A DNA stretch of 64,000 nt from a virus. The position numbers and the translations under genes were made by a program. This document shows, in pieces, positions 1-16,561 of the stretch. Position 1 is the stretch's first letter, and each line of letters opens with the position of its first letter. The notes below the pieces were generated by a model. That model was not told where the DNA came from. It did not search any database and worked only from the letters and a program-made list of their open reading frames with translations. Where the stretch lies: positions 6,120-70,119 of IMG/VR virus record IMGVR_UViG_3300037116_000062; one strand, 5' to 3'.

Positions 1-29
1 AAACGGCGCACATAAAGCCTCCAAAAAGT

Positions 30-297
30 TTGAACCGTTTCTGTTGCTAGGTACGGTTCCAACCCCGAGCGAACTACATTCCTGCAGTCGCGCTCATCGC
101 TTTCGGCTTTTCAGTCGTAGCGGTTATTGGTTTAGTCTCCCGTAACGTGGGCAACTCATCCGACACGCAAGCAGTCTCTATTCCAAGCAATCGAATCAAT
201 TTCACCCCCACTCTAGACTTCTAATAGAAGCCCACAGTGGAGGTGGCGGGTACGACCCGCGTCTTGCCAGTATAGCTAAAGCCCTCGACGTGTGTAA
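30..297 (-). ncRNA. ssrA: Circularly permuted (two-piece) tmRNA
   Basis: On the - strand, the acceptor piece ends GACGCGGGTCGTACCCGCCACCTCCA (263-238). A 28-nt spacer follows, then the coding piece starts GGGGGTGAAATTGATTCGA (209). The acceptor stem GGGGGTG/CACCTCC has G3:U70. The tag frame follows ATAACC at 121-74. Confidence 0.9.
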
Positions 298-301
298 TTT
301 T

Positions 302-430
302 AGGGGCGTCACGCCCACCGGGATGGACTCGATAGCCCTCTGGAGTTCAGCCATATGAACCTCGCCCCAGCGTCTGACACGCTACCGACCTTCAGGGAAT
401 CCAACCCGGTGGACGTGACGTCCTCCACCA
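302..430. ncRNA. Unidentified structured RNA (~125 nt, long closing stem plus two internal hairpins)
   Basis: GGGGCGTCACGCCCACCGGG (303-322) pairs with CCCGGTGGACGTGACGTCCT (405-424). Internal hairpins are GTTCA/TGAAC and AGCGT/ACGCT. Confidence 0.55.
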
Positions 431-488
431 GTGATTTTTATGAGGGCTTGCCCAGACTTTCGTCGTGTAGTTTCCCTCTCACTATTTA

Positions 489-517
489 ACTCTATCAAAA
501 GGCGGACGTGAAGTCAA
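489..517 (-). promoter_or_regulatory. sigma70-type promoter facing the ncRNA cluster
   Basis: TTGACT-17nt-TAGAGT with an extended -10 TG. Confidence 0.6.
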
Positions 518-695
518 CATCTTTTTTCGGCATGCTTTCCCCGCAATAAATGCAGGGATTAAGCCCCTCATCCGACGCATGGTAGGGGAAGTCTTCCCAA
601 GGTACGTCCCTGAGAACGTTCCGTAGAAACTGTTTGAATCCCCACTCGCTAGTTGGTGTTTCCATAAATCCTCCTGATATGGTTTCTCGTTTCAT
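495..695 (-). CDS. Small hypothetical protein (CxxC)
   Basis: 66-aa ORF whose start overlaps the polymerase stop; CIYCG motif. Confidence 0.45.
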   Translation of the reverse strand: MKRETISGGFMETPTSEWGFKQFLRNVLRDVPWEDFPYHASDEGLNPCIYCGESMPKKDVDFTSAF

Positions 696-2686
696 TTTTT
701 ATAATAAAACCCCTCCCACCCTTCAGCGGCAAGTATAAAACCCATTCCTTCCGCCCACTCAGGGGTCGTAGTCATACATTTCAATAGTACCTCAAGGTTG
801 AAGGCGGAGTCAATGGGCACTTCCAACACTATCTCGTCGTGAATCGTCATAATCACAGTTCCGCCTGCTTTTTCGGCAAGTAGCATACCCGACAATAGGA
901 TGTCGCGCGCGATCGCCTGGACAACGTTTTCGCAGATGAGTCCGCCGTAAAGCCGCTTGATCTGCTTGCCCTTCTTGTCCCACGCCTCATATGAGACTTG
1001 CTTGCGCTTCGGCCCGCCCCACGGGGGAGCCTCCATGCTCACCTTCGGATTGTGGTAGTGGATGCACCTGCCGCTGGGCAGCTTGATCTTGAGCACGAGC
1101 GGATTGCGCCCGTCGACTATGACACCTTTCACATACACGCAGATGTTGCAATCGGTCGCGGTGACGACGGCTTTGTTCAGCGCCTCCCAGTACGCAGGGA
1201 TCTCACTATACTTCTCACGGAACGCGTTCACATACTTCTTGGACGTCGCCTCGTCGATTGTGAGCCCGAATGTGGCAGCGTAGTCGATGAACTTCTCCCA
1301 GCCCATTCCGAACCCGCAACCCAAGATGATGACCTTGCCGTTTGCGCGCTCTGCCTTCGTGATGTCCTTGTATAGCTTCTCCAACAGGAAGGCCATGATG
1401 TCCTTGTACAGATCCAGCCCGCTCGCGTACGCGCCCATCATCGTCTGGCAGCCCGCGAGGACCGCGAGAACGCGCGACTCGATTTGCGCCAAATCGCCCG
1501 CTACTAGCTTGTGCCCTGGCGCGGCAGCGAACGCGCTGCGGATGGTGGATGCGACCAGACTCATTTGGCTGTTCTTGCTGTAGATCTTCTTGCCGTTGCG
1601 GATGGCCCTTGTGTAGGTGTCTAAGAATCGTGAGACGTCCTCATCGCTCTTGTACAGATTCTGCAACTGAACTCCGCGCCCCGCCCACCGCGCGGTGTGC
1701 GCGCCATGGTAGACGAACTGGTCACGCAGCCTGCCGTCCTCACCCATGAGTGAGAGGATCTTCTCCAGCTTCTTATATGCGGACCCGCCCAGCTTCACTT
1801 TCAGTTCTAGGATTTCGCGGGCTTCGCCTTTCAGGTAGGGCAACTTCAAAGCCTCTTCAACGTGCTCCGCGTCAAGCGAATCGTACGGGTACTTCCTGTC
1901 GCGGAGCCACGGGCCGAGTTGCGCTCCTGAGTTCGGGTTCTCCAGTTCCGTGATCGCCTTCATCGCGTCTAAGATCTGATTCGACTCCGCTTCGGCCATC
2001 TTGGACGCATTGACCACGTACGGCTGGTCGATCCAAACGCCCGTCTCGTTCATCCGTTGGTCGAGCAGCCACGCGGCCTTCTCGCCCTCTGTGAATGGGC
2101 ACTTGAGAGCGATCGCGGCATCATCGACATCCCGCTCCGCGATGACGTCCTGAATACAATACTGCTTGAACTCTTCCCACTTCTCGGGGTGGGTATTCCA
2201 ATCCTTGAAGTAAAACTCGGGCGCGGTCGGGTCTTTCTTCAACACGCGTTTCATCTGTTTGGACAGAACGGAAACGATCTTCGTCAACCGATCGTCGCCG
2301 ATCAGGTGCGTCTTCTGCTCGCTCACACCCAGCGCCTGCCCCGCGCGGTGCAGTCCGACTGGCAGCGACATGTTCGCGCAGGTGATGGACGGGTCGTACC
2401 ACCGCTCTTGAGGAATGGTGATCCCGAGTTGGTACTGCAGGATGTCTTTTTCGAAGTTGTAGTTCCACGCGCACAGTTCCACGTTCGGGTCCGCTAGAAG
2501 GGCGGCCAGCTTTGCGGGCATAGGTTCGCCAAGGCAGGGCAGCCACAACTGGGGGTGGTTGCGGTCGATCGCCCAAGCGAGCATCAGGACTTCCGTCAAT
2601 TTGGACTTCGCGTACCGATCCAAGCCAACCTTTTTCAGGTCGAGCCGCGAACGAGTTTCGAAGTCTAACCATAGTCGTGTCTTCAT
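692..2686 (-). CDS. polA: Family A DNA polymerase with 3'-5' exonuclease (SPO2-like)
   Basis: Exonuclease motifs LDFETRS, AWNYNFE and YCIQDV; motif A DLAQIESR, motif B RANGKVIILGCGFG, motif C TIHDEI. Start set at ATG 2686 (GGAGG RBS). Confidence 0.95.
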   Translation of the reverse strand: MKTRLWLDFETRSRLDLKKVGLDRYAKSKLTEVLMLAWAIDRNHPQLWLPCLGEPMPAKLAALLADPNVELCAWNYNFEKDILQYQLGITIPQERWYDPSITCANMSLPVGLHRAGQALGVSEQKTHLIGDDRLTKIVSVLSKQMKRVLKKDPTAPEFYFKDWNTHPEKWEEFKQYCIQDVIAERDVDDAAIALKCPFTEGEKAAWLLDQRMNETGVWIDQPYVVNASKMAEAESNQILDAMKAITELENPNSGAQLGPWLRDRKYPYDSLDAEHVEEALKLPYLKGEAREILELKVKLGGSAYKKLEKILSLMGEDGRLRDQFVYHGAHTARWAGRGVQLQNLYKSDEDVSRFLDTYTRAIRNGKKIYSKNSQMSLVASTIRSAFAAAPGHKLVAGDLAQIESRVLAVLAGCQTMMGAYASGLDLYKDIMAFLLEKLYKDITKAERANGKVIILGCGFGMGWEKFIDYAATFGLTIDEATSKKYVNAFREKYSEIPAYWEALNKAVVTATDCNICVYVKGVIVDGRNPLVLKIKLPSGRCIHYHNPKVSMEAPPWGGPKRKQVSYEAWDKKGKQIKRLYGGLICENVVQAIARDILLSGMLLAEKAGGTVIMTIHDEIVLEVPIDSAFNLEVLLKCMTTTPEWAEGMGFILAAEGWEGFYYKK

Positions 2687-2695
2687 CCCGCCTCC

Positions 2696-2946
2696 AATCG
2701 CTGTCAACTCGAATCGAATCGCTGTCAATTCGCTGTCAAACGCTGACAGCGATTCATCTCTTGTGTTATCAACCGCTTAGGTCGAATCGCTGTCCGCTGT
2801 CATCTATATATACACATAGAAAAAAAAATTCGTCACGTATATATAGAGAAAAACTTGACAGCGATTCAAAACTTTCGTTGATTCTAAAGGTACTTAACCT
2901 CAAACGAATCGCTGTCAAACGGTTGACAGCAATCTGACAGCGATTC
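2696..2946. repeat. Putative replication origin: direct and inverted iterons around an AT-rich core
   Basis: About 10 copies of (GAAT)CGCTGTCA(A) in both orientations. The core has the inverted pair TCTATATATAC...GTATATATAGA and an A run. Confidence 0.75.
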
Positions 2947-4981
2947 AACCCTCGTTCAGCCCGAACTTCTCTGTGCCTTTGTGGGTCTTGCCGACCACCA
3001 CGATGACGCCCCCCATCAGCATAGCCTTCCACGAACGGTTGAACGTGTCCATGCCGCCGCTGCCCGCCCGATGAACGTTGCACGCGTCCTGCAGTTGCTT
3101 CTTGGTCAGGAACTCGTGCTTGCGGAGTGACCGCCGCATGCTTTGTTCCATGCGCTCGACAAGATTGCCGTCGTCCACGGGGTACAGTTCCTCACGGAGG
3201 TAGATCTCATGTTCCGCCCAGGCGATGGCGCGGCTGACCTTCTCCTCGGTGATAGTCTGGTCGTCACTGAAAATCGTCCTCAGCAACAGGTCACGCTTGA
3301 AGTGAGACTCAAGGCGGGACGTCATGCCAGCGTCGACATAGTCGATGTCCATCTTGACTTTCTTCTTGGCGAGCGCCTTCTGGAACTCCTGCCGCATGGC
3401 GTTAGCCTCGTGCGTCTCGACAGGGATCCAACGTTCGCCCGATTGGGACATAGCCGTCGTCAACTCCCCCCAGCGGACTAGCATCTTGGCCGCGAGTGCA
3501 TTGACTGCCGCCGTGTCCTGTTCGGCCCAATCGCCAATGTGAGTCACGCCATTGGTGTAGGCGAGAACGCAGCGGGACATGAACCCACTCCCCGCCGCAC
3601 CCTTACCCGTGACCACTCGATCGAACGATGCTCTCGTGAAGCCGCCCGTGAACGAGATGGAGATGTCGCTGAACTCGCCGCCCTTGTTGGACAACGATCC
3701 CGCGCTACCTTCGCTGCGGTCATACAACTCGATCATCTTCGAGAGCAGTGTCGAGTTTTGTGCGGCCCCCTTCTCGAATAGCGTCTTCATCTCATCGAAG
3801 TAGACGACGACGTTGCTGTTGTCAAACCCCTCGCTGAGGTACTTCACCATGTGCTCGCCCGACGAGAACAGTCCCGCCTTCGGCAAGCCTACGCTGGTCT
3901 TGTTGATGTAATTGAGCAACGCGGACTCGCCTGTGCGCTTCCACGATTCGCCCTTGCCAGATTCGGGGTGGGCCGAGATCAGCATTGTCCAGTGCTTCAT
4001 GTGCAGATCTTTTTGGTTCGGGAATCCGACCATACCATCTACGGACGCGCCGAGGATCGTCTTCAGTTGCGCACGAGCAAACGCGGGCGGGATGAATGTC
4101 CCGTCGGTCACGAGGTGCGTCATGTCGCCAATCCAGTCGCCGTCAATCGCTATGTTGGGCGTCTCCACCAGACCTGTGTCGAGTTTCTTGCCCTCACCGA
4201 AGAACACGACGGGCGTTGACTCCGCCGCGTCGAACTTGTTGAATGCCGCGCTCGATATTTCCTTCAACTTGTCGTCGGGATAGTTCTCGCCATCCTCGCA
4301 GTTGTTCGCCGCGAAGTTTTTCAGCGCCTCGTAAATCCCGTCTTCGTCCAAGCCCGCGTTGCGGAACTTCCCCGCCGCCGACATGATGTGGGTACGGCGG
4401 TTGCCCAGCGAGATGAGATCCCCGCCGTCGGCCTTCGTCTTGAATACAGGCTTCTCCTTCTCAGCGGCCAACGCGACGAGCCCGGGCGGCAGAGGGATGA
4501 TATCCACGTTCTTGTATATTGTATATTGCTTGCCTGAGGGGTGCCAGGATCCCGCCCCTACTACGTAACCACCAATCCCTTTGAAATCGCCCGAGGCTGT
4601 GCCGATCTGAAATTTCGTAGTGGGAACAGAGCCGCTGAAATATAAGTGCGCGCCAAATCCGTCGCGGCCAGACAGGACGGTGAACGTCTCAGGGATGCCG
4701 TGTTCTTTCTTCCACGCCTCGAATTGGGCGACGTCCTCAATACCCTTGTCTACGTCCAGCACGGTCAGGTTGGACATCCCGCAGGAGATTCCATAGTTGG
4801 CCTCTTCTCCAGCGGCCCACGGGGCGAGCGCAATCTTCGGATCACGGGTGCCTGAGTTGCAAGCATGCGGCGAGTACTTCGCGTAAGGATCCTTGCCATG
4901 GGGCATGCACGTGATGATGGCCAACCCGCGAGAGAGCGCGTCCTCAGCAGCGGCCTTCAGATCATTGACGATTTCGTTCAT
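2945..4981 (-). CDS. Bifunctional primase-polymerase fused to a P-loop helicase-like domain
   Basis: Prim-Pol motifs NYGI, VLDVD, GAHLYF and GGYVVGAGSWHPSG; PriCT-like helical region; Walker A HPESGKGES and Walker B VVYFDE. Confidence 0.88.
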   Translation of the reverse strand: MNEIVNDLKAAAEDALSRGLAIITCMPHGKDPYAKYSPHACNSGTRDPKIALAPWAAGEEANYGISCGMSNLTVLDVDKGIEDVAQFEAWKKEHGIPETFTVLSGRDGFGAHLYFSGSVPTTKFQIGTASGDFKGIGGYVVGAGSWHPSGKQYTIYKNVDIIPLPPGLVALAAEKEKPVFKTKADGGDLISLGNRRTHIMSAAGKFRNAGLDEDGIYEALKNFAANNCEDGENYPDDKLKEISSAAFNKFDAAESTPVVFFGEGKKLDTGLVETPNIAIDGDWIGDMTHLVTDGTFIPPAFARAQLKTILGASVDGMVGFPNQKDLHMKHWTMLISAHPESGKGESWKRTGESALLNYINKTSVGLPKAGLFSSGEHMVKYLSEGFDNSNVVVYFDEMKTLFEKGAAQNSTLLSKMIELYDRSEGSAGSLSNKGGEFSDISISFTGGFTRASFDRVVTGKGAAGSGFMSRCVLAYTNGVTHIGDWAEQDTAAVNALAAKMLVRWGELTTAMSQSGERWIPVETHEANAMRQEFQKALAKKKVKMDIDYVDAGMTSRLESHFKRDLLLRTIFSDDQTITEEKVSRAIAWAEHEIYLREELYPVDDGNLVERMEQSMRRSLRKHEFLTKKQLQDACNVHRAGSGGMDTFNRSWKAMLMGGVIVVVGKTHKGTEKFGLNEG

Positions 4982-5038
4982 CTAGCCTCCAAGAACTGCG
5001 AGGGCCCTGTGCGGGCCCCCGTTCGTACATTGTAGAAC

Positions 5039-5428
5039 TTAGACTTCCGCGCTCTTGCGATTCTTGAGCACGGAGGTGATGTTGGCGTAGGTGCGGCCAT
5101 CATTCTCTTTGTGCTCAATCACCACTTGGCACTTGACCCCGACCACGTCGTTGAGGTCGAACTCATCGGCGCTGCCGTCAATGCCCAGCTTGTCGAGCAG
5201 GATGCCCAGGGACGACTTGCTGGTGATGACCTTGTTCACGCTCATGACAGCGTCAACGGCATCGCCCGCCTTGTCCTTCTGGTCAAGCGCGGTGAAAACG
5301 ATGCGCGCCTTATCCTTGGTTCCGTACATCGTCTCCTGCGGGCCGAGATCATCGACTCGCGTAATAGTGACGTTGTGCAGACCTTCAGACATCAACTCGT
5401 ACTGCTTTTTCTTAATCACAAGACTCAT
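5039..5428 (-). CDS. Probable OB-fold ssDNA-binding/replication protein
   Basis: EGLH...DLG...FDLNDVVGVKCQVVIEH...YANI pattern; lies in the replication operon. Confidence 0.65.
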   Translation of the reverse strand: MSLVIKKKQYELMSEGLHNVTITRVDDLGPQETMYGTKDKARIVFTALDQKDKAGDAVDAVMSVNKVITSKSSLGILLDKLGIDGSADEFDLNDVVGVKCQVVIEHKENDGRTYANITSVLKNRKSAEV

Positions 5429-5523
5429 GGCATACCTCTTTCTGCCCTCAAAAGGGCTAGTTCGTGTACTTCGTATACAGCGTTGGTCGTACAGGTGGGA
5501 ACGGACTGCTCCCTTACTTTTCT

Positions 5524-5595
5524 AGAATAGCAGACCGCGAACCGAAAGTCAAGTGACGATTTTCGTTGACATCGGCCCACCCCCTCTGCTAGAGT
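5524..5595. promoter_or_regulatory. Back-to-back divergent sigma70 promoters
   Basis: Leftward TTGACT-17-TATTCT (5552-5524) and rightward TTGACA-18-TAGAGT (5566-5595), both with extended TG, at the strand switch. Confidence 0.7.
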
Positions 5596-5622
5596 TAAGA
5601 AGTGGAACTGAAAGGGGCACTC

Positions 5623-5817
5623 ATGAATATTGACCGCAAGACGAACCAAATCCTCAAACACGCCGACCTGTACGGTTCGGACAGCGATTTCCGCAAAATG
5701 GTCGACAACACTGTGACCCTCACCCTGGAGCAGAAGTACGCGTCCGCCCGAGTGATGGACGACACCTACGGGACTGTCGCAGTGGATGACGCCGAGCGAG
5801 GGGCTCATGGCGCGTAA
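5623..5817 (+). CDS. Hypothetical protein
   Basis: ATG with AAGGGG RBS; first ORF after the rightward promoter. Confidence 0.55.
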   Translation: MNIDRKTNQILKHADLYGSDSDFRKMVDNTVTLTLEQKYASARVMDDTYGTVAVDDAERGAHGA

Positions 5818-6022
5818 GCGTAAGAAACAGAAAGACTTGCGGGGCGTAAATCCTGAATCGGCTTCATACTGGGATGAGGTTCTACAGCGAGAAGGTCTGC
5901 AGATGGCCCGGGGGCGACACGAGAAGCTGTCCTACATCGGGTCCGCCCAGAATGTCGACTACGTGAACGACGTCGTTTCGACAAAAAACGGAAGAGTTAC
6001 CCCAAAAGGCGGAGCGGAGTAA
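5807..6022 (+). CDS. Hypothetical basic protein
   Basis: GAGGGG RBS; overlaps the previous stop. Confidence 0.55.
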   Translation: MARKRKKQKDLRGVNPESASYWDEVLQREGLQMARGRHEKLSYIGSAQNVDYVNDVVSTKNGRVTPKGGAE

Positions 6023-6379
6023 CTTTATTTTGGTTACTGATTCTAAAGGAGTTATAGGCATTTTCGAGGCGCAAAACACCCTCAAACCCTGGTGAAATCC
6101 TGTAGGGGTGAAGAGGAGAAACAAAACAGACTTTTGGCCAGCCGCGGGCCCACGGATTGAGTAGCGAATCGCAAGCTCAAACACAGTAAACCACGGCACC
6201 CATTGATCCACACGAGAAACGGTGCCCTAAGTCGCTCAAAAGGCGGCTCTCCTCCACCCGCCCAAAGCGGGAAGGGCACCGACATTGAGCCCCTCCGCCG
6301 CTCTGGCGTCGAGGGGCTCTTACTTTTCGGATTGGCCGATTTGGCTTTTTCGTCTACGACATACATTTTAGGAGGAGAC

Positions 6380-7216
6380 ATGCGCACACTTTTGGCCATT
6401 TTCAGTTGCCACCAGTACGACTACAAGCATCCGCAGTTCGTGGACTGGTTCAAGCGGCCAGTTGCCGATCGCGTGGGTGCCATCCGCGACACTTGGCTCA
6501 AGGATGTCATCGCCAGTGGCATCGATTACAAAATATTTTATGGACGCCCGCCCGCGAAACGTAGGATCGTTGACGCGCATTGGGTTGCTGACAAGAGTTT
6601 CCGTCAACCCGAAGCGGACGAAGTGTTCCTGCAGTGCCCCGACGATTATTACAATTCGGCCACCAAGATACGGCACATAGTTAACTACGCGTTGGACAAC
6701 GGGTACGAGCGGTTAGTCAAGATAGACGACGATGTCTACACCTATGTCGAGCGGTTACTCGCCAACTTACCCACTAGGTGGACAGGCGGCGGCAAACCTA
6801 ACACTCCCGCGGGCCCATGCTACATACTAAGAAAAAGTGACCTACTTCTTCTTAGAGAGAACAGCGCGCCACCTTGGGCGGAGGATGCCTGGGTAGGCAC
6901 CGTGTTACTCGGCCAAAATCAGACGCCCGTGTTTGACGACCGATACTACATCGCGCCGCAGACGCAGCACAATCAGTACATCACTGACGAAGCCCTCGCG
7001 GAGCCGAACGATTACTTCACGATCCATAGTCTGAGCCCCGAGCAGATGCGCCGACATTACAAGGAGGAGTTATGCAAAAGATTAAGTGCTCCCACTCCCC
7101 TTGCTATTGAACCCTCGGCAATCGTGCCTAGCATGACGCCGTCTTTGGTATCTCTAGGAACGTCGGTTCCTAAGGAGGAGAGCGATGCAAAGGATAAAGA
7201 CGTATCCGTCATCTAG
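6380..7216 (+). CDS. Glycosyltransferase, GT31/Fringe-like GT-A fold
   Basis: AIRDTW, DDYYNSATK, KIDDDVY and AEDAWVG motifs; AGGAGG RBS. Confidence 0.8.
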   Translation: MRTLLAIFSCHQYDYKHPQFVDWFKRPVADRVGAIRDTWLKDVIASGIDYKIFYGRPPAKRRIVDAHWVADKSFRQPEADEVFLQCPDDYYNSATKIRHIVNYALDNGYERLVKIDDDVYTYVERLLANLPTRWTGGGKPNTPAGPCYILRKSDLLLLRENSAPPWAEDAWVGTVLLGQNQTPVFDDRYYIAPQTQHNQYITDEALAEPNDYFTIHSLSPEQMRRHYKEELCKRLSAPTPLAIEPSAIVPSMTPSLVSLGTSVPKEESDAKDKDVSVI

Positions 7217-8069
7217 TATCGGATGGGACGTGGACATCAGCCATCACTTCATGCAACGCGAGGAATCAGTTTCCATTCAATGGGATGACGCGTTCAAGTT
7301 CGAAGACAAGGCGTGGTTCCGCGCGATGCACCATTGCGAACCCACGGACATCTTGAACGTCCAAGACAAACTCATCGCGAACCACAAGTTCTACGATCTG
7401 ATTATGACTTGGGACGACAGGGTGCTCAACTCCTGTCCCAACGCGAAGTTCTTGACGGAGTCGTGTTGTTCTTGGTTGCCACGCATAGTGGGCAACCCGC
7501 AGAGCCATTTCATCCCTTCGGAACATCCCAACACCGTCGTGAAATACGACGCGCCAGACACCTCCGCTAAAAGGTTTGAGGTATCCTTCCTTACTAGCTC
7601 AAAAGGTTGGGCGGTAGGGCACCAACTCCGCCAGGAGATTTACGACCGTTTGTCGACAGCCCTCTCCACCCCCGCGGGCACGCTTCCGATTTGGAAGCAT
7701 CGCAGTCCGCCCCGCATTGATGATAAGCGGGTGATTCTTGAACCCGTTCAGTTCAGTATCGTGCCCGAGAACTCACGGCACAACGGGTACTACACGGAGA
7801 AGATCGTCGACTGCTTCATCGCGAAGACCATCCCTATTTACTGGGGATGCCCCAGCATCGGGAAACATTTCAACCTTGACGGGATCATTCAGTTCGAGAA
7901 CTACGATGACCTCGTTGTGAAATTGCAAAGCCTGACACCAGACTTTTACCACGACAGAGAACCTGCTATTGAGGAAAATTTCCGTCGGGCATTGCAAGGC
8001 ACGCCACAGTGGACGCTGATAGAGAATTATCTCACTGAGGGTATCGCGGAGAAACATCGGAGGGGCTAA
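7185..8069 (+). CDS. Glycosyltransferase family 10 (alpha-1,3-fucosyltransferase-like)
   Basis: FSIVPENS...YYTEKIVDCF...TIPIYWG GT10 signature. Confidence 0.88.
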   Translation: MQRIKTYPSSSIGWDVDISHHFMQREESVSIQWDDAFKFEDKAWFRAMHHCEPTDILNVQDKLIANHKFYDLIMTWDDRVLNSCPNAKFLTESCCSWLPRIVGNPQSHFIPSEHPNTVVKYDAPDTSAKRFEVSFLTSSKGWAVGHQLRQEIYDRLSTALSTPAGTLPIWKHRSPPRIDDKRVILEPVQFSIVPENSRHNGYYTEKIVDCFIAKTIPIYWGCPSIGKHFNLDGIIQFENYDDLVVKLQSLTPDFYHDREPAIEENFRRALQGTPQWTLIENYLTEGIAEKHRRG

Positions 8070-8758
8070 TGAACGTAGGCGTGTACATTGCAGCGGGCCC
8101 GAACCCGATTTTCCTCCGGCTGTTTATGGCTCAATTGGCCCGACAGATAGTCCTCCCCCGATTCTTGTCCATCTACGAAAATGGATGCGACAAGTCGGCC
8201 TTCGACTGGGCATGCAGCGCAATCGTGAAAGAGTTGACTGCGAAGGGCGTGCAAGTCCTGCACACCCACGAGTCCGCCCCCGCGAACACTATCAAGCGGT
8301 ATTTCCTGCCGCTCCAGACCCTGCAGCACAAGACGGCCACCGACATCTTCTTGAAGATGGACCTGGACGACTTTTACACGGACGATTATGTCCCGAACAT
8401 GGCTCTCGCTCTCGGCAAGCACGACATCGCCATCAACTTGAACAACGCTATCTTGCTCGTGCGCCCCTTTCACGGAGACTTCAAGTACAAGCCTGTCGTG
8501 CAGATGAAGCACTCCCCGATTGGCGCGGCACCCGCGCACGTCTCATTCAACCGTAAGTTCGCTGAGAAGTATCTCGGCTCCCTCGCGGGCGCGATCGACC
8601 GTATAGACGTCGCTGATGACGAAATCATGGCGGCTGCGATGGAAGGAATGGACGTTCACCGTTTTGACGGACCCGTCGACTACACCTACGTGAGTCACGG
8701 GAACAACCATTCGTCATACGCGTGGCAAGCGACAGGCGGACGAATCTATCTCGACTAG
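8069..8758 (+). CDS. Putative GT-A glycosyltransferase
   Basis: FLKMDLDDFY DxD motif; C-terminal YVSHGNN. Confidence 0.65.
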   Translation: MNVGVYIAAGPNPIFLRLFMAQLARQIVLPRFLSIYENGCDKSAFDWACSAIVKELTAKGVQVLHTHESAPANTIKRYFLPLQTLQHKTATDIFLKMDLDDFYTDDYVPNMALALGKHDIAINLNNAILLVRPFHGDFKYKPVVQMKHSPIGAAPAHVSFNRKFAEKYLGSLAGAIDRIDVADDEIMAAAMEGMDVHRFDGPVDYTYVSHGNNHSSYAWQATGGRIYLD

Positions 8759-8766
8759 GAGGGGAA

Positions 8767-9498
8767 GTGATAACCCTAACGCTGAGTGGCGGGTTGGGCA
8801 ACCAACTTTTTCAGTATGCATTTGGCCGATCGCTCATGGCAAAACACGACGTGACCTTTCTGCGGAATACTGGCGAGCGCGGATACCAACTGGGGAATTT
8901 CAACACGAAGGTGACCCTAGTCGATAAAGCGAACGGGCCATACCTCGATCAGCGAGATACGCGCTACAACCCAGACTATGCGAACCTGCCAGACCCGAGC
9001 ACAGTGTGCTGTGGCTGGTGGCAAAGCGAGAAATATTTCTCAAACGTTTCCGCGGAACTCCGCGAAGAACTGACCCTCAAGAGTTGGCCGAGCCAATCCG
9101 CCCAGGACATAGCGCGTAAGATGCGCAACTGTGACAGCATCATTCTCTCGTTTCGACGAGGCGACTGTTACGAAACTGACAACCGCCTGCCGATGAGTTA
9201 CTACAACCACGCAATCGAACAGATGAGCGGATTGAAGGATCCACATCTGTTCATATTCAGTGACGTGCCGATCACCGAGACGTTTCCGATCCCGGCTACG
9301 ATCGTGCCGCATAGCACGCCTGGGGGCATCTGGCTCATGAGTATGTGCAAGCACGCCATCCTTGCGAATTCCACCTATCCGTGGTGGGGCGCATGGTTGA
9401 GACGTGAGGAAGGAATTACGATTGCCCCCAAGATGTGGTATCCCACGGGCGATCAGGACATAGTCCCCGAACGTTGGGCACAAGTACAGAGTTTTTAG
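8767..9498 (+). CDS. Glycosyltransferase family 11 (alpha-1,2-fucosyltransferase-like)
   Basis: GGLGNQLFQYA, GWWQSEKYF, FRRGD, FIFSD and ANSTYPWWGAWL. Confidence 0.9.
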   Translation: MITLTLSGGLGNQLFQYAFGRSLMAKHDVTFLRNTGERGYQLGNFNTKVTLVDKANGPYLDQRDTRYNPDYANLPDPSTVCCGWWQSEKYFSNVSAELREELTLKSWPSQSAQDIARKMRNCDSIILSFRRGDCYETDNRLPMSYYNHAIEQMSGLKDPHLFIFSDVPITETFPIPATIVPHSTPGGIWLMSMCKHAILANSTYPWWGAWLRREEGITIAPKMWYPTGDQDIVPERWAQVQSF

Positions 9499-9506
9499 GA
9501 GGGCGT

Positions 9507-10505
9507 ATGGCACGGATTCTCGTTACAGGCGCAGGTGGATTCATCGGACACCACTTGGTGAAGAAGTTGAAAGCCGCCGGGCATTTTGTCCGCGGCATTG
9601 ACATCAAATATCCTGAGTACGAGAAGACCGCCGCGGACGAGTTCTGGATTAAGGATTTGCGTTGGGACTACAACGCTTTTGCTTCGTTCAATGGCGAACC
9701 GTTCTGCAACCGAGAGTTCGACGAAGTGTACAGCCTCGCGGCAGATATGGGCGGGATCGGGTACATCACTAGCCATCTCGCGGACATCGCACGGAACAAC
9801 ATCCTCATCAACGTGAACATGCTGGAAGCCGCGCGCCTCTTCGGAGTAAGCAAGTATCTCTATACATCCTCCGCGTGCGTGTACGCGCAGTCCAAACAGC
9901 ACGACGCGAATGTCATCCCCCTCAAAGAGGAAGACGCATACCCCGCCGATCCCGAACCTGGGTACGGTTGGGAGAAACTGTTCGCTGAAGAAATGTGCAA
10001 GTACTACCGCAAAGACTTCGGGATGGACACGAAGATCGTGCGATTCCACAACGTGTACGGCCCCCTCGGAACATATGACGGCGGGCGTGAGAAATCCCCC
10101 GCGGCATTGAGCCGCAAGATCGCCAAGACCGCAGATGGTGGCGTTCTCGAAATTTGGGGTGACGGGAAGCAGACGCGCTCCTACATGTACATCGACGACT
10201 GCGTCAAAGGGCTCATGCACCTAATGGCGTCAGACTACCACGAGCCTTTGAACCTCGGCACGGATGAACTTCTTACCATTGACCAGCAGGCGGAAATCAC
10301 CTGCAAAGTGGCGGGCAAGACTCTTACCTTTCAGCACGACTTGACTAAACCGCAGGGCGTGCGCGGGCGCAACAGTGACAACACGCGGCTCCGCGAAGTA
10401 CTCGGATGGGAGCCAAAGACGACGTTCGCCGAAGGCATGGCAAAGACATATCCTTGGATCGCAGAACAGGTAACGTCCATAACTATGGACACTAACCCCA
10501 GTTAG
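9507..10505 (+). CDS. GDP-mannose 3,5-epimerase-like NAD-dependent epimerase
   Basis: GAGGFIG, LAADMGGIG, SSACVY, YGWEK, GGREKSPAA and GVRGRNSDN. Confidence 0.9.
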   Translation: MARILVTGAGGFIGHHLVKKLKAAGHFVRGIDIKYPEYEKTAADEFWIKDLRWDYNAFASFNGEPFCNREFDEVYSLAADMGGIGYITSHLADIARNNILINVNMLEAARLFGVSKYLYTSSACVYAQSKQHDANVIPLKEEDAYPADPEPGYGWEKLFAEEMCKYYRKDFGMDTKIVRFHNVYGPLGTYDGGREKSPAALSRKIAKTADGGVLEIWGDGKQTRSYMYIDDCVKGLMHLMASDYHEPLNLGTDELLTIDQQAEITCKVAGKTLTFQHDLTKPQGVRGRNSDNTRLREVLGWEPKTTFAEGMAKTYPWIAEQVTSITMDTNPS

Positions 10506-10537
10506 CGACCATAACTGTGAACCCTAAGAAGGTGAGT

Positions 10538-10636
10538 ATGTGGATGAGGCGTTGCCCAAAGTGCGGCACGGATCTTCGCAAAAAACATCTAGGGGATATC
10601 CTGTGGTGTTTGTGTGGCTGGGTTTGGGGGGACTAA
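10538..10636 (+). CDS. 32-aa zinc-ribbon microprotein (not in the ORF track)
   Basis: MWMRRCPKCGTDLRKKHLGDILWCLCGWVWGD; AAGGTG RBS; TAAATG coupling to the next gene. Confidence 0.55.
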   Translation: MWMRRCPKCGTDLRKKHLGDILWCLCGWVWGD

Positions 10637-11308
10637 ATGCCAAAGGTCTTAGTTGCCATATCTTCTTGTCAGAGTTATGAAGCATCTGGTCTGAATGACC
10701 CGATGCGCGAGACGTGGTTGACAGCCCTCCCCCAAGGCTGGGACTATAAGTTCTTCCACGGTCGCGGCGCACAGTCGAAGCATGACGTCGTAGTACTTGA
10801 CGTAGATGACGGGCTTGGCGGACTCACTGAGAAGGCGAAGGCAAAAGCGCGCTGGGCGATTGACAACGGATACGATTACATCTTCTCCTGCTTCCCCGAT
10901 ACGTACGCGAACGCAGATCGTCTCGCGGCGAGCGGGTTTGAGAAGTTCGATTACCTCGGAAACGTATACAAGTTCCCGAACGCGAACTCCAGTTTCTGTC
11001 AGGGCGGTCCTGGGTACTTCATGAGTCGCAAGTCTTGTGTGTATCTCGTAAACAATTCGGCCAGTTACCTGAACGACGATACCTTCATCGGCGACACACT
11101 AAATCGCGCGGACATCCTGCGGTTCGACCACCGCGGCTTCACCACATGCGGCCCAGGTCCACTGAAGACAAATGACTCGATCACGAACCACTTGAGCACG
11201 CAGCCCGGGGGGTTCACGGGGCACAACATGCGCGAGGAGCACGAGAGATGGCTAAAGTCTTTTACACATATTTGTGGCTCAGAGAAGACGGAACCCCCTA
11301 CTATGTAG
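10637..11308 (+). CDS. GT31/Fringe-like glycosyltransferase paralog
   Basis: MRETW, YKFFHGR, LTEK, DNGYDY, QGGPGY and NDDTFIG; the DxD position reads FPD. Confidence 0.7.
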   Translation: MPKVLVAISSCQSYEASGLNDPMRETWLTALPQGWDYKFFHGRGAQSKHDVVVLDVDDGLGGLTEKAKAKARWAIDNGYDYIFSCFPDTYANADRLAASGFEKFDYLGNVYKFPNANSSFCQGGPGYFMSRKSCVYLVNNSASYLNDDTFIGDTLNRADILRFDHRGFTTCGPGPLKTNDSITNHLSTQPGGFTGHNMREEHERWLKSFTHICGSEKTEPPTM

Positions 11309-11736
11309 GTAAAGGTTCTGGGAATAGGGGATTTACAAGCAAGAGACATAGGTTCAGACGCCCGCCCTGCGCCGAGCGTATTGTTGCTCAGGAGTTTGTT
11401 TCAGAGAGGGATGCCCTCTTTGCCGAACAGTTGCTAATCGCCGTCTACGGAAGACAAGACCTCGGGACCGGGATATTGAGGAACCTAACAGATGGTGGAG
11501 ACAACCCCCCTAGGGGCACCCCGTCCAGTTATGCTAAAGCGTCTCTGTCTCTACAAGGACGCCCCGGGGGTTTTAAGGGACGCAGACATACTGAAGAGAC
11601 GAGGGAAAAGATGCGCGCTGCTGCCGCTGCGATTGGCGCACGGAGGGGTCGCAATCGCGGTTTCCTTGTCTCCGAAGAGACAAGAAAGAAACTGAGTGAC
11701 CGAGCATGGCAACAACATCACCTGTTCGTATACTAG
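11248..11736 (+). mobile_element. Free-standing GIY-YIG-like homing endonuclease with NUMOD3 tail
   Basis: FYTYLWLREDGTPYYVGKG, NLTDGG and HTEETREKM; overlaps both neighbours. Confidence 0.85.
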
Positions 11737-12362
11737 TTGGAGTCCCGTTCTTCCGCATCCCAGAACTATCGCGGCAGTGCTTGTCGTCCCTCATGGGGAC
11801 ACCCGCGGACATCCTTGCGATAGACAACGCCGCCGACGGCGACGTGAAGCAAGTCATCAGAGAATTCGGCAGCAGGGTGAAAGTCATATCGAACCCGACC
11901 AATGGATTTTGCAACGGTGGGTGGAATCAAATTCTGGAGTACGGTTTGGAGCACGAGTACGACATCATCGGACTCGGGTCTTCAGACGTAATCCTTCACA
12001 GGGGATGGTACGAATCCCTCGTAGCGCGCTCAACCGCCGCTACCGACGAGGTGTGGATCCCTCGGATAGGAACCCCGACATCGGGAGTTGAAGTAGCCCA
12101 GAACATCGCGGGTTTCTTCACCTTCCTCCCGCTCGCCGCGGCGCGATTGGTTTGCCCAATCCCCCGAACGGTGAGGCATTGGTTTGGTGACCTGTACATG
12201 TTTCAGACGCTCCGCGCCGCGGGGTGGAAGACGGTCGTGTTGAACAGCATTTCCGCGGACCACAGTTGGTCTGCCGTCACCGCGAGAACACCTGAGGCTT
12301 ATGCCGTAATTGCTCAGGACAAGATTGCATGGAGGGCCCTCGGATATCCGTGGGTCGATTAG
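11706..12362 (+). CDS. GT2-like glycosyltransferase
   Basis: ILAIDN, NGFCNGGWNQ and WFGD. Confidence 0.75.
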   Translation: MATTSPVRILVGVPFFRIPELSRQCLSSLMGTPADILAIDNAADGDVKQVIREFGSRVKVISNPTNGFCNGGWNQILEYGLEHEYDIIGLGSSDVILHRGWYESLVARSTAATDEVWIPRIGTPTSGVEVAQNIAGFFTFLPLAAARLVCPIPRTVRHWFGDLYMFQTLRAAGWKTVVLNSISADHSWSAVTARTPEAYAVIAQDKIAWRALGYPWVD

Positions 12363-12369
12363 GGGGACT

Positions 12370-13236
12370 ATGAGAATCGACGCGTTTCCGTTCAGTGATG
12401 AATTGAACATGCTGGAACTCAGACTCGGCCAACTGGACGAAGTCGTTGACAAGTTCGTTCTCGTAGAGACTGGCCGAACGTACAGCGGTCTGCCTAAGCC
12501 GCGCTACTACCAAGAGAACAAGGAACGGTTCGCAAAGTGGAATCACAAGATCGTCGCGTCCGCCCCCGAGTTGGGCAACGCGGGATCCTGGGCATTCGAA
12601 GCGATCCAGCGGGAAGTCATCCCTGGCTTGATTCGCAGCTTCAACCCCGATCCGCAAAGCACGCTGACATTCTCTGATTTGGACGAGATCCCGAACCCCG
12701 AAGTCATCGCGTCGTACACGCCAGACATGGGATTGCGGAACCTCCTGCAGTGGACGTACTACTACAATTTCAATCGCCTGTTCAACTACGGCGAACGCTC
12801 ATGGTCACGCGCACGCATCGGCACCGTCCAGCACATGTACGATCATGGCGCGGTCGGTTTCCGCGGCGGCTGGCCAGCAGGGCGCGACATGGATCACTCC
12901 TTCCCCTCCATCCCGAATGGTGGATGGCACGGGAGCTACTTTCACCCGACAGTTGACATCATCCGTAGGAAAGTCCACAGCATCTCCCACGACGATTTGT
13001 GGGCCGAGTTCGACGCACGGACTGACGCGCAAGTTGCAGCAGACATCCACGAGGGCAAGGACATCTACCATCGCTACAACGCGACACGTGGCGTGGATTC
13101 GTTCTGGGGCACTTGGGTTGACACGGCTGGCGTAACTGCCGACCATCGTCTGCCGCCTTACTTCCTCGCGAATCAAGAGCGTTTCAAGATGTTCACGGAC
13201 GCGCACTTCGTCGAGACGAACAAGCACCTATTCTAG
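12370..13236 (+). CDS. Glycosyltransferase family 17 (beta-1,4-GlcNAc transferase-like)
   Basis: DAFPFSDELNMLELRL, VDKFVLVE, SDLDEIP and GGWHGSYF. Confidence 0.88.
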   Translation: MRIDAFPFSDELNMLELRLGQLDEVVDKFVLVETGRTYSGLPKPRYYQENKERFAKWNHKIVASAPELGNAGSWAFEAIQREVIPGLIRSFNPDPQSTLTFSDLDEIPNPEVIASYTPDMGLRNLLQWTYYYNFNRLFNYGERSWSRARIGTVQHMYDHGAVGFRGGWPAGRDMDHSFPSIPNGGWHGSYFHPTVDIIRRKVHSISHDDLWAEFDARTDAQVAADIHEGKDIYHRYNATRGVDSFWGTWVDTAGVTADHRLPPYFLANQERFKMFTDAHFVETNKHLF

Positions 13237-13244
13237 GAGGAGTC

Positions 13245-14483
13245 ATGGGGATGCCGCCCTACGCATCAAATTTTAGCGAAGGGTTCATCCCAGGCGTCAC
13301 CCCCGTCCTTTACTCGGGCCCCTACTGGGATCACCGCGAGTTGGAAATGGGGACGCAAGCGTTCCTCACGGGCAAGTGGCTCACGACAGGCGAGTACGTC
13401 GCCCGCTTTCAGAACAAGTTCGCCCAGCACTTTGGCGTGAAGTACGCGCACATGGTCAACTCGGGTAGTTCCGCGAATCTCGTGATGATCGCGGCGCTCA
13501 AGAAGCACATGGACTGGCAAGACGGAGATGAAGTCATCGTATCACCTGTTGGATTCCCGACAACGATTGCCCCACTTGTTCAGAACAATCTCAAGCCAGT
13601 TTTCGTCGACATCGAGATGAGCACGCTGAATTTCGACCTGAATTTGTTCAAATCGGCGATCACCCCAAAAACGGTAGCGATTTTCGTATCGCCTGTTCTC
13701 GGCAACCCGCCGCACATGGACGAACTGAAGTCGATCGGCCTCCCCCTCATCGGGGACAATTGTGACAGCCTCGGCTCTAAGTGGAACGGGAAGTATCTCA
13801 CTGAAGCCTACATCGCATGGAGCACTTCGTTCTACCCCGCCCACCACATTACGACGGGAGAGGGCGGAATGGTCTGCTCAGACGACGCCGAACTCATGAA
13901 GACAGTGAAAAGCATGTCTTGGTGGGGCAGGGACTGCTACTGCGTGGGCGCAGCCAACCTTCTATCCTGCGGAACATGCGGCAAGCGTTTCGACAAGTGG
14001 ATCGAGGGATCCGACTCTATCGTCGACCACAAATATCTGTTCACGAACATAGGCTATAACCTGAAACCGCTGGACATGCAGGGCGCAATCGGACTCGCGC
14101 AGATGGAGAAGATCGAGGAGATTGAACTCCTCCGCAGGAAGAACTTCCGCCAATTGGCCTGTCTGTTTGACATCCCAGGCGTGCGCGTGGCGACTTCCCA
14201 TTCCCAAGCGGATGCATGTTGGTTCGGTGTTCCGATCATCTGCGATACCGCGGAGATCAAGAACAGCCTCGTCGCGCACTTGGAAGCGAACAAGATTCAG
14301 ACTCGTCCGTACTTCGCGGGCAACATCCTACGCCACCCAGGATACAAAGCCTTGGGAGACGCGAGCATGTTCCCCAACGCAAATCAGGTGTGGGACAAAG
14401 TGTTCTTCATCGGTTGTCCGCCTCACTACGACAACACCATCATAGACTACATCGAGGGGGTTGTCGGGTCATGGAAAATCTAA
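13245..14483 (+). CDS. rfbH: CDP-4-keto-6-deoxyglucose 3-dehydrase E1 (DegT/DnrJ family)
   Basis: NSGSSANL and DNCDSLG; SFYPAHHITTGEGG has His in place of the PLP Lys; GRDCYC...CG Fe-S ligands. Confidence 0.88.
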   Translation: MGMPPYASNFSEGFIPGVTPVLYSGPYWDHRELEMGTQAFLTGKWLTTGEYVARFQNKFAQHFGVKYAHMVNSGSSANLVMIAALKKHMDWQDGDEVIVSPVGFPTTIAPLVQNNLKPVFVDIEMSTLNFDLNLFKSAITPKTVAIFVSPVLGNPPHMDELKSIGLPLIGDNCDSLGSKWNGKYLTEAYIAWSTSFYPAHHITTGEGGMVCSDDAELMKTVKSMSWWGRDCYCVGAANLLSCGTCGKRFDKWIEGSDSIVDHKYLFTNIGYNLKPLDMQGAIGLAQMEKIEEIELLRRKNFRQLACLFDIPGVRVATSHSQADACWFGVPIICDTAEIKNSLVAHLEANKIQTRPYFAGNILRHPGYKALGDASMFPNANQVWDKVFFIGCPPHYDNTIIDYIEGVVGSWKI

Positions 14484-14971
14484 CTTTTTACACATATTTG
14501 TGGCTCCGAGAAGATGGCACTCCCTACTATGTCGGGAAGGGAACAAAAAAGCGTGCATGGCGTAAAGGGAGCCCTCCGTCAGAACGTGTCCTAATCCAAG
14601 AGTTCCCTTCTGAAGAAGACGCCTTCCTGTCTGAAAGATTTCTTATCGCCCTGTACGGGCGTGAAGATTTGTTAGAAGGATGTCTCATAAATCTTACAGA
14701 TGGTGGCGATAATCCGCCCCTAAGTACCCCCGCAAGTAGGGCGAAGGCGGCAGCGACGACAAGAGGTCAGAAGCGACCTCCGCTTACGGCGGAATGGAGA
14801 CGAAAAATATCCGAAGCTAAGAAAGGCAAGCCCCGTCCGTGGGAAGTGCTGACTGAATCGTCAAAGAAAAAGATTTCGATGGCCTTACGAGGTCGAACAG
14901 GTATTCCAAGAAGTCATAAAGGAAAACCTTGGTCTATCGCCCGACGAGCCGCTTATGAGAAGATGATATGA
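14471..14971 (+). mobile_element. Free-standing GIY-YIG-like homing endonuclease (NUMOD3)
   Basis: FYTYLWLREDGTPYYVGKG, NLTDGG and RRKISEAKKG; start set at ATG 14471. Confidence 0.85.
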
Positions 14972-15840
14972 GCCTTACTATTTTGGGCGGACGAGGTTTC
15001 GTCGGCAGCAATTACGTGAAAGCCTTCTACGACCCCGCGGTCGGCAACATCGCATCGATCAACGGTCGCGATAACTACAACGTCTTCAGTAAGGACGTCC
15101 TGTACTTTATCAGCACCGTTCACAACTACCACGTGTTTGACGCGCCCTTGCGTGACATCGACACGAACCTGACCACCCTTGTTCAGGTGCTGGAATCATG
15201 GAGAGCGCGCCCTGACGCGCGTGATGGGGTGTTCAACTTCATCAGTTCATGGTTCGTTTATGGAGGCAGCAAAATTCGGCACGACGTTCACGAGAGCGAG
15301 TATTGTGACCCGAAGGGGTTCTACTCGATCACCAAGCGTTGCGCGGAGCAACTGCTCGCATCCTACTGTGCGACGTACGGGCTGAAGTATCGCATCCTGC
15401 GATTGGCCAACGTCCTCGGGGATGATCTGAAAGCGTCCGCGAAGAAGAACGCGCTGCAGTATATGATCGGCCAGTTGAGCAGGAACGAACCTGTGCAGAT
15501 CTACGGCACGGGCGACTTCCACCGGGATTACATCCATGTGAACGACTGCGTGACCGCGATCGACCTCGTCATCACCCACGGCGATCTGAATCAGATCTAC
15601 AACATTGGCAACGGGAAGACGTGGAAGTTCAAGGATATCATTCAGCACGTCCGCGAACGCCTGGGCTCTAAGAGCGACGTAACATTCATAGAGCCAAAAG
15701 ATTTCCACAAGATTGTGCAGTCCACCAGCTTCTATATGAACGTGGACAGTTTGAAAGGGTTGGGTTACATCCCCACATTGACGGAGGAGACATTATGGGA
15801 GTCAACCTATGAAAACTTTGATAGCAGTGGTGAATGCTAG
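14968..15840 (+). CDS. NAD-dependent epimerase/reductase (SDR; possible 3,6-dideoxyhexose 4-reductase)
   Basis: GGRGFVG, YSITK (YxxxK) and RDYIHVND. Confidence 0.85.
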   Translation: MSLTILGGRGFVGSNYVKAFYDPAVGNIASINGRDNYNVFSKDVLYFISTVHNYHVFDAPLRDIDTNLTTLVQVLESWRARPDARDGVFNFISSWFVYGGSKIRHDVHESEYCDPKGFYSITKRCAEQLLASYCATYGLKYRILRLANVLGDDLKASAKKNALQYMIGQLSRNEPVQIYGTGDFHRDYIHVNDCVTAIDLVITHGDLNQIYNIGNGKTWKFKDIIQHVRERLGSKSDVTFIEPKDFHKIVQSTSFYMNVDSLKGLGYIPTLTEETLWESTYENFDSSGEC

Positions 15841-16561
15841 ACACCGCAGTGATTGGCGCGAGAGAATTCGCAAGACATGGGGCCCGCAAGTTCCCAGAGA
15901 CTTAGGCGTTGACGCCTTTTTCTTTGTGGGGCGCGGCGCACCTATCGCTGACATGGACAGCGTGGTCGAACTCGACTGCAATGACGACTACAAGTCGATC
16001 CCAGAAAAGGTACGATCGGTCGCAAAATGGGCCCGCGAGCACGGGTATCACTACATGCTCAAGTGCGACGATGACGTCGTCCTTCGCCCCAAAGATTTCG
16101 CAGCAAGCGGGTATGAGGCGCACAAGTATTCAGGTCGGGCCAACCGCCCGCCGCAACCGTACACAGTGCCCTACGGGTTCTGCTACGTGTTGGACGGCGA
16201 GTGTATGGATGTGGTTATCCAGAGCCCGCTGCCCACGGGTCACCCCGAGCCGTTCGACGACGAGCGGTGGGTCGCAGAGATCCTGTGGAACCGAAACATC
16301 TCACTCACGGACGTGCGCAGGTATCAACTCTGCCACTACGTGAACTACGACAGGGATCCAAAGAACGCTTTCGCCTTCTGCATCCATCTACCCGATGCCC
16401 AGGCGGTCAAGCTGCTTGAGTACGACAAGGTTTTCGCTCGATATGGCGACTCTGCTGGCGTCCCCTCGCTGGCCTTGCGCAACGGGCAGGAGTTCGTGAA
16501 TCGCCGACGAGGCTACGCGGACAACACCAATCTAGTTCAGAACTGGTGGGACACACATTAG
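15809..16561 (+). CDS. GT31/Fringe-like glycosyltransferase paralog
   Basis: RERIRKTW, DDYKSIPEK and LKCDDDV. Confidence 0.8.
   Translation: MKTLIAVVNARHRSDWRERIRKTWGPQVPRDLGVDAFFFVGRGAPIADMDSVVELDCNDDYKSIPEKVRSVAKWAREHGYHYMLKCDDDVVLRPKDFAASGYEAHKYSGRANRPPQPYTVPYGFCYVLDGECMDVVIQSPLPTGHPEPFDDERWVAEILWNRNISLTDVRRYQLCHYVNYDRDPKNAFAFCIHLPDAQAVKLLEYDKVFARYGDSAGVPSLALRNGQEFVNRRRGYADNTNLVQNWWDTH

Follow-up and report, generated by a model that had tools for sequence, protein, structure and literature searches.

The locus and its surroundings

The window, that is the whole stretch of DNA that was analysed (64,000 nucleotides), corresponds to bases 6120-70119 of a 70,119-base linear IMG/VR record with a CheckV completeness estimate of 73%. 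The record is that of a phage and encodes a terminase, an SU10-like portal, a family A DNA polymerase and a primase-polymerase. Close to the start of the window, on the minus strand, lies a circularly permuted gene that encodes tmRNA, by which stalled ribosomes are released. Its parts are the following, with all positions given in the window.

29-297 (-): circularly permuted tmRNA gene, in the order acceptor piece, spacer, coding piece
238..297 (-): acceptor piece, the upstream half of the gene, with the P2 5' strands (293-288 and 268-264), the T-arm, the 3' acceptor strand and discriminator A238 (5' end approximate)
246..260 (-): T-arm GCGGG-UCGUA-CCCGC, with a stem of 5 bp and a loop of 5 nt (UCGUA)
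245-239 (-): 3' acceptor strand CACCUCC, contiguous with the T-arm and followed by discriminator A238
210..237 (-): 28-nt spacer that is presumably cut out of the RNA and holds a 7-bp hairpin (232-226 with 222-216)
29..209 (-): coding piece, with the 5' acceptor strand, D-loop analogue, P2 3' strands, a short region at the position of pseudoknot 1, tag frame and 3' hairpin
209-203 (-): 5' acceptor strand GGGGGUG, which pairs with CACCUCC into a 7-bp acceptor stem including G3:U70
202-191 (-): D-loop analogue with a single G; the GG doublet is absent
190-186 and 168-163 (-): P2 3' strands, which pair back to the upstream piece
162-122 (-): short region at the position of pseudoknot 1
74..121 (-): tag frame with resume codon GCU (121-119), reading ATTEKPKAMSATAGM in translation, and stop codon UAG (76-74)
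59-53 with 38-32 (-): 3' terminal hairpin of 7 bp with loop ACCUAGCAACAGAA, followed by five U at 27-23

An earlier note on this DNA, made from the letters alone, had placed the tRNA-like 3' half upstream of the 5' half on the minus strand, with a 28-nt spacer carrying its own hairpin between them. This is the arrangement found, with the T-arm and 3' acceptor strand at 260-238, the spacer at 237-210 and the GGGGG that opens the 5' acceptor strand at 209. The same note had read an acceptor stem with the alanine determinant G3:U70, an unencoded CCA and a non-canonical T-loop, and all three agree with our reading. The acceptor stem has seven pairs and discriminator A, CCA is not encoded because CUG follows directly after A238, and the T-loop has five nucleotides instead of seven on an intact stem.

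Folding programs reproduce the structure in part. ViennaRNA folds the T-arm (246..260) with 6 bp and a 3-nt loop, and a minimum free energy co-fold of both pieces recovers the acceptor stem and the T-arm, not P2. No convincing pseudoknot 1 was seen by eye in 162-122 when an H-type structure as in two of the relatives described below (L123 and L126) was sought, only short nested helices. The hairpin at 59-32 and the U run at 27-23 likely form the 3' terminus of the coding piece and a terminator; the hairpin is absent from the results of a simple terminator scan because its loop is longer than the limit of 8 set in that scan.

The gene is situated between a replication gene and a phosphoesterase-like gene, all on the same strand.

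692-2728 (-): family A DNA polymerase gene (polA), upstream of the tmRNA gene
495-695 (-): ORF of 66 aa between polA and the tmRNA gene
489..517 (-): promoter-like site consisting of TTGACT and TAGAGT 17 nt apart, the -10 element preceded by TG, located at the end of the 66-aa ORF some 190 nt before the acceptor piece
303..426 (-): long imperfect leader hairpin that stops about 6 nt short of the acceptor piece
13-11 (-): ATG of a downstream gene of 269 aa that runs out of the window (5323-6132 in L002), with GGAGG at 22-18 before the start

A consensus promoter scan gave 4 sites against 0.9 +/- 1.0 expected in shuffled sequences, which is weak evidence. The leader fold (494-294) has an energy of -83.8 kcal/mol (z = -4.74), and none of 200 shuffled sequences was as stable. 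A related virus (L007) has a shorter hairpin in its leader with the same flanks, and the leader at 299-419 shows a single difference in a strain that has another sequence in place of the tmRNA core. The leader hairpin (303-426) is possibly a processing or termination structure.

The downstream protein is 37% identical to gp132 of Tunturiibacter phage Tunturi_3, named 'phosphoesterase' (E = 6e-34), and has no Pfam match at E <= 0.001. A phosphoesterase-like gene is found downstream of the tmRNA gene in four of the six close relatives. Neither an SmpB gene nor an integrase gene (Phage_integrase match) was found in the 70-kb record, which is no proof of their absence since the record is only 73% complete.

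Model searches and related genes

RF04321 (tmRNA_permuted) is the only one of 4227 Rfam families that exceeds its cut-off in the 64-kb window, with 53.2 bits against 47 (E = 1.4e-07); in a search of the whole record it scores 49.2 bits. The match is partial and covers model positions 1-175 of 213. The alphaproteobacterial model (alpha_tmRNA, RF01849) can be aligned from end to end at 363-29 (E = 3.8e-11 in a 700-nt search) and stays below its cut-off, with 44 bits against 50. Rfam scanning of positions 1-700 at E <= 10 rendered no riboswitch or other family besides these two. Covariance models and ARAGORN had both been put forward as checks in the earlier note, and the outcome is divided: the permuted model supports the gene, the alpha model falls short, and ARAGORN calls no gene either in the window or in the first 7 kb of the record. 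ARAGORN also misses the homologues in L007 and Tunturi_3 as well as all loci with a 5-nt T-loop (L035, L068, L122 and window/L007), and its failure in the window may be due to the 5-nt T-loop. There is thus an annotation gap, in which the gene of the window, its homologue in L007 and that of Tunturi_3 are found only by the Rfam model. Comparison of positions 1-6000 by blastn with 50,697 phage records gave no match, and there are no RNA runs among the listed sequencing runs that hold positions 1-700.

Searching with the PolA protein gave 8 viral loci. A permuted tmRNA gene is located about 1 kb downstream of polA in all six close relatives (L123-L128, PolA 58-61% identical in amino acids), and is called there both by Rfam (62-94.6 bits) and by ARAGORN. 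The tags according to ARAGORN are AKTNVKAFAAHA, AKTNTLAMGAAAGR, AETKPLAMAAAAGR, ATTEKPKAFAAAA, AETEKPRAFAAAAGR and ATTKPRAMAAAAGR. The tag frame of the window, which begins with an alanine resume codon and has an in-frame stop, aligns with these and is homologous to, for example, ATTEKPKAFAAAA and AKTNTLAMGAAAGR. A seventh locus (L129) ends inside polA. The eighth, a more distant relative (L130, PolA 32% identical), has an 82-nt tRNA-like domain of standard order just upstream of polA, at 3917-3998 on the plus strand. This domain scores 56.4 bits with RF00023 (cut-off 47) and has the acceptor strands GGGGGUG/CACCUCC as in the window, with no tag frame and no encoded CCA; it resembles the RNA of mycobacteriophage DS6A that consists of a tRNA-like domain only.

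The closest cultured phage according to the large terminase is Tunturi_3, a 97.6-kb podovirus with an acidobacterial host (TerL 45.5% identical over 98%). RF04321 matches it over the full model with 63.3 bits at 88172-88396 of PP885686.1 on the minus strand (1501-1725 in L134). The gene sits in an unannotated gap of that record with the homologous phosphoesterase gene downstream, and the words tmRNA, ssrA and transfer-messenger do not occur in the main text of the Tunturi_3 paper (PMC11924767). When IMG/VR was scanned with the exact T-arm of the window, only one other virus was found, represented by two near-identical contigs (L007 and L108). It has the same T-arm, another spacer hairpin and the tag ATDKPKAMAAHA.

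Covariation of the paired regions

The sequences of the window, L007 and L123-L128 were aligned, with L007 incomplete at the 5' end and L124 at the 3' end, and a structure of 30 pairs was drawn by hand (T stem, acceptor stem, two P2 helices and the 3' hairpin). Standard pairs occupy 93.4% of the cells, compared with 45-51% when the partners are slid by 1-3 columns, a control that is flattered because the structure was drawn from these same 8 sequences. Both sides have changed in 17 of the 30 pairs, and none of 500 shuffles reached any of five measures. Despite the origin of the structure, such a number of double changes would still be hard to get without real pairing.

The acceptor pair 3:70, the alanine determinant, is G:U in all eight sequences, and pair 6:67, which is C:G in six of them, is U:A in those of the window and L007. 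Double changes occur in the 3' hairpin stem (6 of 7 pairs) and in the P2 helices (8 of 11 pairs, with 97.5-97.7% of cells paired). Three pairings between the two pieces had been proposed beforehand. GCAA/UUGC (264-268 with 186-190) and ACACGU/GCGUGU (288-293 with 163-168) are the two P2 helices and covary among the eight sequences, while CUAU/AUAG could not be aligned and has one pair broken in a natural variant. The central claim, that the phage carries a permuted tmRNA gene, is upheld by the covariance model, by homology to the genes called by ARAGORN in all six close relatives and by covariation.

Proposed function

From its sequence and those of its relatives, the stretch 29-297 on the minus strand is probably a working phage-encoded circularly permuted tmRNA gene, belonging to a lineage of soil podophages of about 95 kb with Tunturi_3 as the cultured representative. 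The steps can be modelled on the two-piece tmRNA of Caulobacter, which Keiler and colleagues are said to have described in 2000. The gene would be co-transcribed with the replication genes or transcribed from just downstream of them, RNase P would cut before G209, and the spacer would be trimmed to A238, after which the CCA-adding enzyme of the host would supply CCA. The two RNAs would be held together by pairing in the acceptor stem and P2, be charged with alanine by the AlaRS of the host and be brought to stalled ribosomes by its SmpB. Translation would then resume at GCU (121-119) and add A-ATTEKPKAMSATAGM. Because this tag has no Ala-Ala end, the ribosome may be released without the tagged protein being sent to ClpXP, which is speculation.

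Several traits set the gene of the window apart from those of its six close relatives. Its T-loop is UCGUA (5 nt) where the relatives have UUCGAYU (7 nt), CUG stands in the place of an encoded CCA, and the spacer has 28 nt compared with roughly 100-170 nt. The 5' end reads GGGGGUGAAAUUG with one G, whereas the relatives have GGGGGCGUCAWGG with the GG doublet. The region at the position of pseudoknot 1 is shorter than in L123 and L126, which by eye seem to form this pseudoknot. The tag ends in SATAGM and not in the usual Ala-Ala, unlike tags of the host type; within the lineage, the tags end in LAA in Tunturi_3 and in AAAA, AAHA, AAAAGR and AGM in others. The length of the T-loop, CCA and the GG of the D-loop all matter for the elbow of the tRNA-like domain. 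With a T-loop two nucleotides shorter, no encoded CCA and no GG, charging or the binding of SmpB and EF-Tu could be impaired.

These traits would also be expected if a once-functional tmRNA had ceased to work after losing part of its T-loop, CCA, pseudoknot 1 and the greater part of its spacer. The failure of ARAGORN, the alpha_tmRNA score below cut-off, the partial match to RF04321 and a tag that has drifted to SATAGM fit with such decay. We nevertheless consider it unlikely, on account of the pattern of conservation. In L007, the T-arm and acceptor strand are identical to the window in 26 of 26 positions and the 5' strand and D-loop analogue in 18 of 19, while the remaining blocks of the gene are only 12/33 to 25/47 identical (about 35-50%); the unusual core is thus what has been kept. 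Furthermore, acceptor pair 6:67 has changed on both sides, and the tag frame is uninterrupted up to its stop codon.

Natural variants in peat point in the same direction. Over the tmRNA core, the window is matched without any difference by contigs from three other peat runs, so that the odd T-loop cannot be put down to an error of assembly. A variant contig from a fourth peat run covers 95-296 with 20 differences and 1 insertion, none of the differences falling in 238-265 or 189-209, which hold the T-arm, both acceptor strands and the D-loop analogue. Ten of the changes (9 substitutions and the insertion) are found in the 28 nt of the spacer, which reads ACCA after the acceptor strand, so that CCA is encoded again. 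Two pairs have changed in a compensatory manner, 228:220 from U:A to C:G with the spacer hairpin kept and 266:188 in P2 from C:G to U:A; the broken pair is in CUAU/AUAG (272-275 with 178-181). An untouched core, changes concentrated in the spacer and compensatory pairs are the pattern of a selected RNA with a discarded spacer. There is also a second, unrelated viral lineage with a 5-nt T-loop (UCGAU) among 120 viral loci with the permuted pattern (L035, L068 and L122). It too is without the GG doublet, whereas most loci with a 7-nt loop among the 120 keep it, which suggests a coordinated change rather than damage. Taken at the level of sequence, the gene of the window is probably not decaying.

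In the run with the variant contig (X6) there is also another contig (record 12) in which 346 other letters replace positions 122-298 (177 nt), with near-identical flanks at 95-121 and 299-419. Strains seem, from these sequences, to differ by whole tmRNA cores that are exchanged as a cassette.

The altered tRNA-like domain might instead act as a decoy or modulator that binds SmpB (or AlaRS) of the host and damps or redirects its trans-translation, as has been proposed for the DS6A RNA, which we rate as slightly less probable still than decay. The elbow is restructured, with a 5-nt T-loop and no GG, and since no SmpB gene of the phage was found the RNA must compete for that of the host. The distant relative L130 has a tRNA-like domain without a tag, and a precedent is the DS6A RNA with its inhibitory effect, as described by Hudson et al. 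2014 (PMC4131195) and in the 2025 tmRNA database paper (PMC11915505). However, the gene of the window differs from the DS6A type in having a tag frame. This frame has been kept together with the sequence around the resume codon and the 3' hairpin, all are homologous to those of the relatives, and all would be superfluous in a pure decoy.

Subtype, host and origin

For a working permuted tmRNA, the preferred reading, the question of subtype arises. The best subtype model is alpha for the window and L123 and beta for L126 and Tunturi_3, and only L123 passes its cut-off (alpha, 72.8 bits). The 3' terminal hairpin had been likened in the earlier note to the alphaproteobacterial form, a likeness that stands up: the alpha_tmRNA model aligns the hairpin, and the loop motif ACCTNGNAACAGAA recurs in many viral loci of alpha type. 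In all, the motif was found in 55 of 264 loci (with the stretch of the window and Tunturi_3 counted twice each), comprising about 48 viral permuted loci together with L123, L126 and L127. It was found in none of the bacterial loci fetched by the standard 5' motif, but the flanks of these loci may be too short to include it. By resemblance in sequence, the loop motif would tie the clade to the permuted tmRNAs of alpha type. The alpha form is a matter of resemblance and not of membership, because the alpha_tmRNA score is below cut-off and the relatives are split between alpha and beta.

The sequence of the window occurs in peat metagenomes, and an acidobacterial host is plausible for the phage. 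The first 19 nucleotides of the tRNA-like 5' end in the relatives are identical to those of Acidobacteriaceae tmRNAs, a 19-mer that is also widespread in other phyla. Eight of the nine acidobacterial loci sharing it are standard one-piece genes, with the tag AEPQFALAA in seven cases and ANDNLALAA in one. If the host is acidobacterial, the form of tmRNA in the phage thus differs from that of its host. The cut-off of RF04321 is exceeded in two of 121 genomes of the class to which a Granulicella MAG belongs. One of these is a standard tmRNA according to ARAGORN. The other, at 1470-1835 on the plus strand of L260 (G101:C5), is a true permuted tmRNA of 104.5 bits with the tag ANSYENALPLAA. Its neighbours are a gene for a PD-(D/E)XK nuclease and one that looks ERF-like by eye, and it probably belongs to a prophage or a binned viral contig. 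No tmRNA gene of an acidobacterial phage is described in the titles and abstract openings of the literature matches listed.

That the locus is a remnant of an attachment site, a piece of host ssrA in a temperate phage integrating into the tmRNA gene of its host, is very improbable: integration often takes place at tmRNA genes and pieces of ssrA can be present in phages, according to PMC9004378 and PMC4383910, and the relatives share the 19-mer with Acidobacteriaceae, but the gene of the window is complete and permuted rather than a partial gene beside an integrase, eight of nine acidobacterial loci are standard one-piece genes, no integrase was found in the record, and the stems covary among phages.

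Comparison with known systems

Viewed as a functional permuted tmRNA, the gene has several published counterparts. A two-piece tmRNA is described in phage Melnitz (an OM43 phage), pelagimyophages and others by Buchholz et al. 2022 (PMC9004378), where tmRNA genes are reported in 402 of 18,146 phage genomes and 53 of 133 unique structures are of the two-piece type; the two-piece form in a phage is not new. A list of phage tmRNAs that includes the DS6A RNA is also given by Hudson et al. 2014 (PMC4131195), and the 2025 database paper (PMC11915505) explains RF04321 and counts 79 bacteriophage sequences.

The phages of PMC9004378 are like that of the window in having a complete permuted ssrA with a tag of its own, a lytic appearance, a relation to the alphaproteobacterial type and a host tmRNA thought to be different. 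They are marine T4-like myophages, in contrast to a peat-soil phage with an SU10-like portal that is related to a cultured podovirus. The Melnitz gene is preceded by a glutamine riboswitch, and positions 1-700 of the window have no riboswitch match. The window also differs from them in its 5-nt T-loop, unencoded CCA and tag ending in GM instead of Ala-Ala.

Tunturi_3 shares with the window a short spacer, the 3' loop motif, the downstream phosphoesterase and the phage lineage. Unlike the window, it has a 7-nt T-loop, an encoded CCA and another acceptor stem, and its tag is longer and ends in LAA (by eye). The alphaproteobacterial two-piece tmRNA (RF01849, Caulobacter type) agrees with the window in gene order, P2 between the pieces and an upstream hairpin, and its 3' loop ACCUGGCAACAGAA differs from ACCUAGCAACAGAA by one substitution. 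The T-loop of the window is shorter than in that type, and its tag starts with ATTEKPK where viral tags of alpha type start with AND. The one-piece tmRNA of Acidobacteriaceae (Granulicella MAG, L136) shares at least the first 19 nt of the tRNA-like domain with the relatives of the phage, and its T-arm is nearly the same as that of L126. It is unlike the window in its standard order, its length of about 354 nt and its tag AEPQFALAA, and the tRNA-like domain of the window differs (GGGGGUGAAAUUG...).

The presence of tmRNA genes in phages suggests that some of them look after the translation machinery of the host during infection. Published examples are mostly aquatic, and the locus extends them by a lineage from soil, whose phages are probably acidobacterial. 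One member of this lineage, Tunturi_3, is in culture together with its host Tunturiibacter psychrotolerans, and its tmRNA gene carries no annotation. As natural variants, the trimmed tRNA-like domain and the atypical tag ends could show which parts are needed for charging, for SmpB binding and for targeting to proteolysis.

A broader and quite tentative proposal, which we regard as possible and would not expect to hold in full, is that soil podophages, probably on Acidobacteriota with a one-piece tmRNA and the tag AEPQFALAA, keep a two-piece tmRNA of foreign type. Their tags would have moved away from the Ala-Ala degron, and in the branch of the window the elbow would have been pared down to a 5-nt T-loop without GG. 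If this is true, the phage would run its own trans-translation and free ribosomes without handing tagged proteins to ClpXP, and the tRNA-like domain would tolerate far more reduction than textbook models allow.

Other genes of the phage

Genes of the homing-endonuclease type with HNH and AP2 domains are found in L002 (85-576, minus strand) and L131 (3507-4007, plus strand), both phages that share the tmRNA with a 5-nt T-loop; the two genes are 50% identical over 64 residues (tblastx). On the plus strand of the window, a run of sugar-modification genes extends over 6203-16561, with two weak glycosyltransferase matches below the Pfam cut-offs and a DegT/DnrJ/EryC1 aminotransferase at 13245-14483 (233 bits). 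A protein of 396 aa with an Ice-binding-like domain (PF11999, 121 bits) is encoded at 19658-20848 (+), shortly before the terminase and portal genes. At 50547-54407 (+), among large genes without known family, there is a protein of 1286 aa with a GNAT acetyltransferase domain and DUF7178, which may be a virion protein or an ejected protein.
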